Below, piece by piece: positions 1 to 3,000 of a stretch of 15,412 nucleotides of DNA; the stretch's first letter is position 1; every line of letters begins with the position of its first letter. Source of the DNA: a virus (lineage: Duplodnaviria; Heunggongvirae; Uroviricota; Caudoviricetes); IMG/VR virus record IMGVR_UViG_641736224_000028, positions 1 through 15,412 of that record; one strand, 5' to 3'. Position numbers: made by a program.

Positions 1-3000
1 ACGCGCAGCAGGTGCATTTGATGCTGTGCAAATCTGTCTGGCTTCATCCTGGTCACATGCAACAAAGTGTCCGTTACAGAACCGCTGGTAAACTGTACCA
101 AGCGAGCCAAAACGGTTTTTCGTCACGATGATTTCAGCAAATGGCGCGGCGCTACTGTTCTCATCATATACCGCTTCCCGATAGAGCATGATGATTGAGT
201 CTGCGTCCTGTTCAATGCTTCCTGAATCACGCAAATCTGCGTTTGTCGGGCGTTTGTTTGGTCGCTTCTCAACATCGCGCGAAAGCTGACTCAGGGAGAT
301 AACCGGTGTTTTCAGGTCTTTCGCCATCGCCTTCAGGCTTCCGGAGATGTGAGCAATTGCGAGGTCGTTGCGGTCTGCTTTCGGCTTCTCAATCAGGCCA
401 AGATAATCCGCCATGATGAGTGACAGGTTTGGATTTTCCTGCTTATGCCGTTCTGCGATTGAGCGTATTTCTTCGACCGATAACCGCGAAGCATCGACTA
501 CCCATACATCCAAATCTGCAAGCTGACTCATGCCGTTAGCAACACGTGCCCAGCCCTCGTCATCCATCGATGCAGGATTTCGCAGTACGCTAACCGACAT
601 CCTCCCGGCGTTGGCAATGCTTCGCTCTGCAATCTGCAATGCGCTCATTTCCATTGAGAAAATCAATACCCCGCGCCGGACGTCAGAACCAGGAATAACG
701 CGGCTTGCCACACCTTCGGCAATCTTCAGCGCCAGTTCGGTTTTCCCCATACCAGGACGAGCGGCGATAATCACCAGGTCTTCTGCGTTCATCCCTCCAG
801 TGATAGCGTCAAGCTCTTCGATTCCGGTCTTCAGGGTATCTGACTCTTCTCCGTTCCTCAGACGCCTGTCAAGCGTGTCAGTGTAGTCAGTGATGATTTC
901 CCCTAACCGTACAGGTTTAACCTCGTCACGGGGCTTTCTGATGGCTGAAAGACGCTTTACAAGTTCATCCATCGCCTGACTCGATGCGTCGATGGTTCCG
1001 CTTTGGATTGGTTCACGCATTTCATCCATGATTTCCAGCACCAGACGGCGGTGATAGTTATCCGCGACCATTCCGGCATATCCCTTCAGGTTTGCGGCAC
1101 TCGGGCAGTTTTTGCTGGTCATCAGGATTGACGTGAAATGCTCCTCTCCGCACGCCTCGGCAACCATCAGCGCATCGATTAGGTTTCTGTTTCTCGCCTG
1201 CTTGCGAATAACCTCGAAGGCTTTACGGTAGAGCGGAATTGAAAACGCTTCCGGCTCCAGCGTTGCCAGAACGTCACTGGCGGTTGGAGTTAATCCACCA
1301 ATCAGCAGGCCACCGATAACGCTAGCTTCGATATCCTGTCTCATGCAATCCCCCTGTCTGCAAACTTCCCTTCCCGAACTCCCGTTAACGAATCTTCCCT
1401 CAGCAGGTAATCAAAATCTGCCGTCCAGCCCGTGTCGTTGTCTCCGAAGTAAAACGGCTTGGCCTGATGCACAAACGCCCTGACATACGCTCTGAAACCG
1501 TCCACGTTTGGCGTTTTCAGTTGCGGGATAATTTTCTTCAGGCGGCGTTTTCGTTTCTCGTTGACCGCAACAGCGTGTGGAAGTCTGTCACCGACTTCGG
1601 TGTTGTAGGCGTTCAGGAAGGATTCGTAGTCGATTCGTTCTGCCTTGCGACGTTCAGGTTTAACCTGCCCATCGCCATCCCCGTTAGGGGGTAAGGGGGT
1701 ATTTGTATTTATTGTCTTTTGTATATTGTCTTTTGTGTTTAGCTGACTTGGCTTATACCCATTAGCCGACTTGGCTAATGTTTTATTAGCTGTTTTAGCT
1801 AATGTTAAGCTGTCCTGGCTAATCCACTGAGAAACCACCTTGTTCACTCCGATTTTCACGCCATCAGCAATGAGGAATTTACGCTCAATAAGCTGGCGCT
1901 TGGCAGCGCAAACATGAGTGTGATGAATACCTGTCATGGCTGCTATCTGCGTGTTTGTGAGTCGATCCATCGGCTTATTGAATCCGTATGTCTTGCGCAT
2001 GATAGCGAGCATCACCTTCAACTGCCGGACGGTTAAATCAGCCATCAGCAGACTGTCGGTAATCTCGTTAGCAACGCGCATGAAACCATCTTCGGTATCT
2101 GCCACGCGATGCTCCACGACCTCCAGTTGAGGCCTGTAATCAGCTAACTTAACGACGCCCATGTTTCACTCCTGCTTTGGCTAGTCTGTAAACACCAACA
2201 AGGCGCTCTGCGAACGCCCTGTTATTTGCTGCGGCTACCACTAATCCCTCAGGTGAATCAGGGTGTCGAATCTCTTCTTTTTCCTGGTATTTCTTACGAC
2301 GTTTTGTCATAATTACTCCTGTGGATTGATCCAGTAATTCCCTCAGAATTGCATATCAATTTGCTTAAAATCCTCGGTGGCAGCCGGGGATTTTTTCTTT
2401 GTGATTTCATCAAGCGCATACTTAAAAGCCCTGCTAATCGGACTGATGTCTGATGCCATTCCGAAAGCACACAAGACCGAAGCAATAAACCGCCAGTCCG
2501 TTCTGCTTATCTTCGATTCATGACAGCCAATCATCTTTGCCAGACCGCGCTGGGTAAGCGTTGACAGGTTGATGAGTAAATCTGTTTCTGCGCGATCAAC
2601 GTCATGCTGGGATAGTTTGCTGTAACTTGTTTGTTCCATTTCTTAAGATTTCCAATAGTGAATAGTTAGTTGAAAGGTATGCGTGGAAACGCATGTAGCC
2701 TTAGTTGGTCAGATATATTGGGACTCGCTTTGTCAGCGACGTAGGACGAATGTCCATTGTGAAAATAGCGGTGTTACTTATGCAGCCAGAAGGTTCTTTT
2801 TGCTTATTTCAAGCATTTCGCTTGCTTGATATTTGCCACCAGAAATCTCTTCGATTTTTGATGCGTATTTAGTTTTCCCAAAAAACTCAGTCTTAGGGAG
2901 GAAGCCGTTTTTGAGCCACTTATAGACAGCCCTTTCGCTAACTCCACAAGCCTTCGCAACTTCAGGGATGCCGACACCTTTAATCGGCTCATCAAGATTT

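Follow-up and report, generated by a model that had tools for sequence, protein, structure and literature searches.

A probable pO-oop-tO unit, homologous to lambda oop, opposite the 3′ end of cII in a lambdoid prophage

OOP was among the first antisense RNAs ever described, and the question raised by the present locus is whether a prophage that differs from lambda just upstream of its cII gene carries a complete counterpart of it, with a promoter, a start and a terminator. The locus lies in a stretch of 15,412 nucleotides, IMG/VR record IMGVR_UViG_641736224_000028 (Caudoviricetes), and by the window we mean that whole stretch. The window holds the early region of a lambdoid prophage and runs opposite to the lambda map: the genes for a DnaB-like P protein, an O-like initiator, a small gp53-like open reading frame (ORF), cII and cro are on the minus strand, and cI (3084-3791), a Ser/Thr kinase gene, the cIII region and int are on the plus strand. 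An earlier note, made from the sequence alone, had proposed an oop-like antisense RNA against the 3′ end of cII and had left its start unassigned. Our results uphold the proposal and go on to supply the start. Plus-strand positions 2284-2400 of the window are very probably the prophage's pO-oop-tO unit, a homologue of lambda oop; for this explanation as a whole we would put the probability at about 0.88. The unit has homology to the pO-oop-tO of lambda and occupies the same place relative to cII and the replication genes, and its promoter, architecture and terminator are conserved in 119 loci. Its parts and its antisense target are the following.

2284..2289, plus strand: candidate −35 element of pO, CTGGTA; weak, with 3/6 matches to TTGACA and an 18-nt spacer.
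2305..2313, plus strand: extended −10 element of pO (TGtCATAAT), consisting of TG at 2305-2306, one base, and CATAAT at 2308-2313.
2321..2397, plus strand: predicted oop RNA of 77 nt, with its 5′ end at G2321 (by homology to lambda) or G2324 (by homology to P22 RNA-seq) and its 3′ end at 2396-2400.
2321..2364, plus strand: 5′ stem-loop of the oop RNA, in which 2321-2330 pairs with 2355-2364 and an inner stem joins 2334-2340 to 2346-2352.
2367..2400, plus strand: intrinsic terminator tO, with the stem 2367-2378/2383-2394, the loop GGCA, and a U-run at 2391-2396 followed by CUUU.
2343..2639, minus strand: cII, the antisense target, 98 aa (Pfam Phage_CII, E = 1.4e-31); CII is the annotation in HK97, 1717 and phi330.

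In a blastn comparison, window 2303-2404 aligned with lambda 38592-38693 at 79.4% identity over 102 nt (E = 6e-16), the two phages sharing TTTGTCATAAT.ACTCCTGT.GAT.GATCCAGTAAT together with the core of the terminator. When the lambda oop sequence (38675->38599, 77 nt) was extracted and aligned, it corresponded to window 2321-2397. Lambda OOP has its 5′ end at 38,675, with the −10 element 8-13 nt upstream, and ends at the tO hairpin (Hayes et al. 2018). The CATAAT of the window is identical to the −10 hexamer of lambda pO (38,683-38,688), and as many nucleotides as in lambda separate it from the equivalent start, G2321. The importance of this hexamer in lambda is clear from the effect of an ATTAT->CGCGC change at 38,683-87, which abolishes oop action (Hayes et al. 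2018). The earlier note had placed CATAAT correctly at 2308-2313 but had counted it among weak candidates; that rating does not hold, as the element is identical to the validated −10 of lambda and has in addition a TG upstream. By homology, the start of the RNA can be assigned to G2321 or G2324. It should be said that pO was assigned here by homology and by its extended −10 element, not by a sigma-70 scan.

The likeness to lambda extends to the layout of the whole unit. In both phages CATAAT overlaps the start codon of the next gene, which is O in lambda and the gp53-like ORF in the window, where the CAT of CATAAT is the complement of the ATG. In both, the RNA is 77 nt long (a predicted length in the window) and reaches into the 3′ end of cII, with an overlap of 52 nt of cII coding sequence in lambda (Hayes et al. 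2018) and about 55 nt in the window (2343-2397, including the stop codon). Both terminators have CUCGGU..GCCGGG plus U6, both units have a CTGT-N8-CCAG box at +1, and both are flanked by cII and a Phage_rep_O gene. There are also differences. O lies directly upstream in lambda, whereas the window has the small gp53-like ORF module there, so that the −35 and upstream regions are unrelated; the 5′ stem is formed in a register shifted by about 4 nt (GUGGAUUGAU/AUCAAUUUGC in the window, GAUAGAUCCAG/CUGGAUUUGUUC in lambda); and two pairs of the terminator are swapped in a compensatory way. Several of the properties by which an OOP RNA may be recognized are found together at this locus: sequence homology to lambda oop; intrinsic self-termination, by the hairpin at 2367-2394 with its U-run; a −10 element 8-13 nt before the 5′ end that overlaps the start codon of the downstream replication module; a course, predicted as 2321-2397, antisense to the pR operon from the spacer after cII into the 3′ coding end of cII; and the gene order cII-oop-orf-O-P, with a block of about 33 bp at pO/oop that recurs in 119 viral contigs.

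The other end of the RNA is set by the terminator. On the plus strand, the terminator scan found a hairpin at 2367-2394 with 12 pairs, five of them G-C, and a loop of 4, followed by TTCTTTGTGA; a minus-strand partner was not returned by the scan. The stem is the longest among 10 terminator-like matches in 6 kb (5.2 expected by chance), and its folding energy is −16.1 kcal/mol, compared with −11.1 kcal/mol for the minus-strand version, which is trailed by UUUU only. The plus-strand terminator that the earlier note had located at 2371..2400, inside the last codons of cII, is this hairpin: those coordinates are correct for the G+C core plus the T-run, and the whole stem begins at 2367. In the frame read from the sequence, the codons K-S-P-A-A-T-E-D-F at the end of cII encode it. 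The 80-nt stretch 2321-2400 is predicted to fold into two hairpins with −30.2 kcal/mol (z = −4.1), and none of 200 shuffled sequences was equally stable. We also asked whether a plus-strand ORF at 2349-2453 (34 aa, TTG start) might encode a small peptide, but dismissed this reading, as the ORF extends across the terminator and is without support.

A hairpin of this kind would stop any plus-strand transcription entering cII, and promoter-like matches occur across the region at about the chance rate. The terminator might on these grounds serve other plus-strand transcripts, either antisense RNAs from O and the origin or read-in from the prophage flank, with no dedicated short RNA involved. We give this explanation very little credence. 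There is no plus-strand gene upstream for more than 2 kb, positions 1-2640 being coded entirely on the minus strand, and a fixed distance of about 60-75 nt separates the conserved −10 element from the terminator in every module, which argues for a dedicated short unit.

Related loci bear on the unit as a whole. When viral contigs were scanned with a pattern built around the 27-bp block from −10 to +1, 119 loci were obtained. They encode 26 distinct RNAs, each of which folds into a 5′ stem-loop followed by a G+C hairpin with a U-run. Five unrelated terminator stem sequences occur among these 26 variants; bodies of the P22 type and the ES18 type have unrelated stems and yet keep the hairpin and the U-run. 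On the promoter side, at least four upstream modules (lambda O, gp53-type, P22 orf48-type and a fourth) are joined with at least five oop bodies in many combinations. With each of four upstream modules, TG precedes CATAAT (119/119 loci), and yet codon 2 of the overlapping gene can be ACA, CCA or GCA; the retention of TG despite the change of codon fits an extended −10 promoter. The situation at the −35 position is less clear. CTGG(T/A)(A/C) is found at the same distance from the −10 element in all three non-lambda upstream modules, but its conservation there is ambiguous, because a conserved Gln codon in the ORF on the other strand is read from the same letters. CCTGG, the Dcm methylation motif, is present at this position as well (2283-2287), with the same spacing in the loci of the three non-lambda upstream modules (L003, L009 and L045 types).

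Conservation of the terminator was assessed in an 18-sequence alignment of lambda/HK97-type bodies. Its helix is 99.1% paired in the 18 distinct variants, whereas controls with slid partners give 38-49%. The lambda type differs from the window type at two neighbouring pairs, in each of which both bases have changed (C-G<->U-A and G-C<->C-G), and the changes coincide with the CII substitutions R->S and R->D. Since the pairs were compensated at the cost of residue changes in CII, it is the hairpin, not the peptide, that is under selection. These changes should be counted as one or two events, not eight, because they probably go back to a single historical event common to 8/18 sequences. The same cannot be said of the 5′ stem. 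The HK97-type 5′ stem was rejected as a structure conserved pair for pair, its helix 1 being 84% paired with no compensatory change; a 5′ hairpin forms in every variant, but the lambda type and the window type pair in different registers.

The features at the junction with the replication genes are these.

2303..2335, no strand: conserved block of about 33 bp at pO/oop, at the junction of the replication modules with the cII/immunity modules.
2149..2310, minus strand: gp53-like ORF of 53 aa, in the 'orf' slot between oop and O, with its start codon inside the −10 element of pO; Gp53 in the HK97 annotation.
2316..2319, minus strand: Shine-Dalgarno sequence of the gp53-like ORF (GGAG on the minus strand), read from the sequence, between the −10 element of pO and the +1 of oop.
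1341..2162, minus strand: gene of the O-like replication initiator (Pfam Phage_rep_O, E = 5.8e-33).

BLAST match classes either start at 2301-2303 or end at 2335, and the homology with JLK-2012/phi345 begins exactly at 2303. Judged by these boundaries, the pO/oop block at 2301-2335 is a mosaic breakpoint. A 33-bp region of high homology common to lambdoid phages, as well as the cII-oop-orf-O-P layout, has been published (Hayes 2012). The gp53-like ORF at 2149-2310 has no Pfam match; its 3′ end overlaps the start of the O-like gene by 14 nt, which suggests that the two are translationally coupled.

Is this unit, then, new? Window 2200-2480 has 100% identity with Stx2 phage 1717 and with phi330, and 98.9% with HK97, and related sequence is present in 1662/5426 complete E. 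coli genomes, where only coding sequences (CDSs) are annotated. The records of HK97, 1717 and phi330 and the RefSeq E. coli records likewise carry CDSs and no oop RNA. HK633 has, like the window, a gp53-type upstream module, and its record includes a feature 'similar to lambda oop mRNA', but its oop body is of the lambda type and not of the HK97 type. In P22, oop is a 63-nt small RNA antisense to c1 that was seen by small-RNA-seq, its ends being equivalent to window 2324 and 2400, and the P22 GenBank record gives an 'oop promoter' and an 'oop terminator' at homologous positions. OOP-BTP1 has been detected in a transcriptome. P22 and BTP1 share with the window an identical 27-bp −10/+1 block, CCTGGT at the −35 position, and a small ORF between oop and the O-like gene (orf48, 'similar to HK022 gene 53'). 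Their oop differs in having a body about 14 nt shorter, an unrelated terminator stem, and as its target the P22-type C1 instead of the HK97-type CII. We considered BTP1 as experimental support for the promoter context of the window and rejected it, as this phage carries the P22/orf48 upstream module and not gp53. In reviews, OOP-like sequences are mentioned in the cII-O regions of Stx phages, and OOP is listed for 'lambda and Stx phages'. Thus, the oop unit of the window is correctly identified but already known, homologues in lambdoid, P22-like and Stx phages having been published.

A more distant arrangement was found in the 933W/min27-type Stx2a phage Stx2a_F403 (AP012529.1; locus L125), which shares only the cII 3′ end and the terminator with the window. 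Between its cII and O lies an unannotated ORF of about 47 codons (L125 185-346) with a perfect TATAAT over the ATG. In the relevant part of this locus (L125 323-405), the terminator is at 371-401, in the 3′ end of cII, about 45 nt downstream of TATAAT. Its oop-like unit would be about 65-70 nt long, shorter than that of the window, and would be without the conserved block and the CTGT-N8-CCAG box. With TATAAT and a terminator both present, the layout of promoter, short RNA and terminator thus recurs in diverged sequence.

The block around +1 may also carry sites for regulators. For lambda, a LexA site within oop-pO has been reported (Hayes et al. 2018), as have DnaA boxes downstream of pO. Two similar sequences can be pointed out in the window.

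2317..2336, no strand: LexA-box-like TCCTGTGGATTGATCCAGTA, with CTGT-N8-CCAG at 2319-2334, spanning +1; suggestive only.
2320-2328, minus strand: DnaA-box-like CAATCCACA, overlapping the LexA-like box.

The SOS-box pattern gave three matches (at two sites) in the window, where 0.58 would be expected by chance. On a LexA position weight matrix (PWM) whose training boxes score 12.3-25.1 bits, TCCTGTGGATTGATCCAGTA scores 13.3 bits and its lambda equivalent 14.9 bits, the two differing only in central bases; 8% of shuffles reach 13.5 bits, the top score of the window. SOS control through the LexA-like box is accordingly suggestive only. The top score on the same matrix, 13.5 bits and not above the shuffle level, belongs to AAATGGATATTAATACAGAA at 8337-8356, near the cIII/kil region. 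The second site of the pattern, CTGT-N8-ACAG at 11972-11987, was set aside, since it lies inside an ORF and looks like chance.

Several observations weigh against the identification of an active oop unit. The −35 element is poor (3/6), the lambda TTGAGT is absent, and a generic sigma-70 scan gave no pO call at the CATAAT site, since a −35 match of 4/6 or better is required there. In lambda, pO is fully active only with 45-94 nt of O sequence upstream of it, and pO45 is nearly inactive where further upstream O sequence is missing; in the window, the corresponding 45-94 nt upstream of pO are gp53 sequence unrelated to lambda O. The phages for which there is RNA-seq evidence, P22 and BTP1, have a third, orf48-type upstream module. 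In the literature supplements searched there were no transcript, transcription start site (TSS) or terminator-read data for the exact variant of the window: the supplements of Owen 2020 had no OOP entry, those of the EDL933 TSS study had no matching promoter string, and PMC3640518 mentioned LexA only in an unrelated context. In Rfam 15, no family reached its gathering score in 2250-2450, permissive matches of 11-23 bits being terminator-like noise; Rfam appears to have no oop model, and thus offers no covariance model as an independent check. Conservation inside the 27-bp anchor of our locus set is partly circular, although the TG, the body and the terminator lie outside the pattern. Finally, the LexA-like box scores no better than weak real boxes and does not stand out statistically.

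Some of these observations, namely the weak −35 element without a scan call, the near inactivity of lambda pO45 and the missing transcript data, would also be expected if the locus were an inactive relic, in which the hairpin, the T-run and CATAAT persist as a recombination linker and as coding or translation-initiation sequence (the gp53 Shine-Dalgarno and ATG, the cII C-terminus) and little or no RNA is made. That the conserved block also encodes the Shine-Dalgarno sequence and start codon of the downstream gene agrees with this explanation. We nevertheless consider it improbable. Extended −10 promoters depend little on a −35 element, and the TG of TG-CATAAT is kept while the codon overlapping it changes. 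The terminator acquired compensatory changes at the expense of CII amino acids. In P22 and BTP1 an oop RNA is made from a non-lambda upstream module that likewise has CCTGGT at the −35 position, and the 933W-type module independently keeps both a −10 element and a terminator.

A different view of what pO is for arises from the genes on the other side of it. Within the O-like gene there are four iteron-like 16-nt repeats (AGCYGNNYTRGCTWAT) at 1741-1823, with a spacing of 20-24 bp, and an AT-rich stretch at 1690-1740 adjoins them; together these probably mark the replication origin. One of the repeats was also picked up as a terminator-like match (1760-1780) in the scan described above. On one hand, pO might act mainly as a convergent promoter, which by collision with or occlusion of pR transcription into gp53-O-ori tunes the initiation of replication, the terminator only keeping the antisense RNA short. 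A lambda pO− mutation indeed increases pR read-through, decreases plasmid and phage replication and changes its directionality, and the level of oop RNA is without effect on replication. The origin-like iterons are about 500 bp from pO, and the oop unit sits at the junction of cII and the replication module in every phage examined. On the other hand, such a role is compatible with an antisense role, which has been demonstrated in lambda with oop RNA supplied in trans. Moreover, the two-hairpin fold and the fixed overlap of about 55 nt with cII are kept across modules, and pure interference would not require either. We therefore hold it possible, but on balance rather unlikely, that convergent transcription is the main function of pO.

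The preferred explanation remains an antisense RNA made from a dedicated unit. RNA polymerase would start from the extended −10 element TGtCATAAT (2305-2313), in the gp53-type upstream context, at about G2321. Transcription would stop at 2367-2400, inside the cII coding sequence, giving an RNA of about 77 nt with a 5′ stem-loop and a terminator hairpin. Being cis-encoded, this RNA would pair without mismatch with the pR transcript, from the spacer between cII and gp53 into the last approximately 55 nt of cII. In lambda, OOP pairs with the cII-O mRNA and RNase III cleaves the duplex (Krinke and Wulff 1987/1990, as cited in later papers). By analogy, RNase III may cleave the duplex formed in this prophage, the cII message upstream would then be degraded, and the lowered level of CII would favour lytic growth. 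Convergent firing of pO may at the same time dampen pR transcription into the O/ori region, as it does in lambda, and expression may be linked to the SOS response through the LexA-like box over +1.

The gp53-type phages (HK97, Stx2-1717 and the prophage of the window) could also have put oop to additional use. The 5′ end of oop lies 2 nt from the Shine-Dalgarno sequence of the gp53-like ORF, and this ORF appears coupled to O by the 14-nt overlap; it is for these reasons conceivable that oop also throttles translation of gp53-O, and hence replication. The foreign upstream module could, in turn, give pO a regulation unlike that in lambda, for example independence from the enhancer region internal to O. 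Both ideas are speculative, and we regard them as doubtful.

Further along the window, a full-length match to the Rfam family Lambda_thermo, the cIII thermoregulator, was found at 8095-8153 on the plus strand (88.5 bits, E = 7e-21); on the strength of this match, the RNA switch that controls cIII translation is predicted to be present in the prophage. The plus-strand interval from cI to the leftward early genes (3852-5762) encodes a DUF3024 protein (3852-4193), a 153-aa ORF without a Pfam match (4261-4722) and a eukaryotic-type Ser/Thr kinase (4716-5762; Pkinase, E = 2e-46), annotated as stk in JLK-2012. This interval looks like an accessory or exclusion cassette expressed in the lysogen. A G+C-rich hairpin at 5928-5949, terminator-like on both strands, comes directly after a small ORF (5765-5929) and is probably a bidirectional terminator that closes the stk cassette.

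The value of identifying oop in this prophage is one of annotation and not of discovery, since most GenBank/RefSeq records of HK97-like and O157 prophages lack oop. A covariance model made from the variants collected here would let annotation pipelines mark the RNA. In Stx phages, the oop RNA bears indirectly on toxin release, through the balance between lysis and lysogeny.

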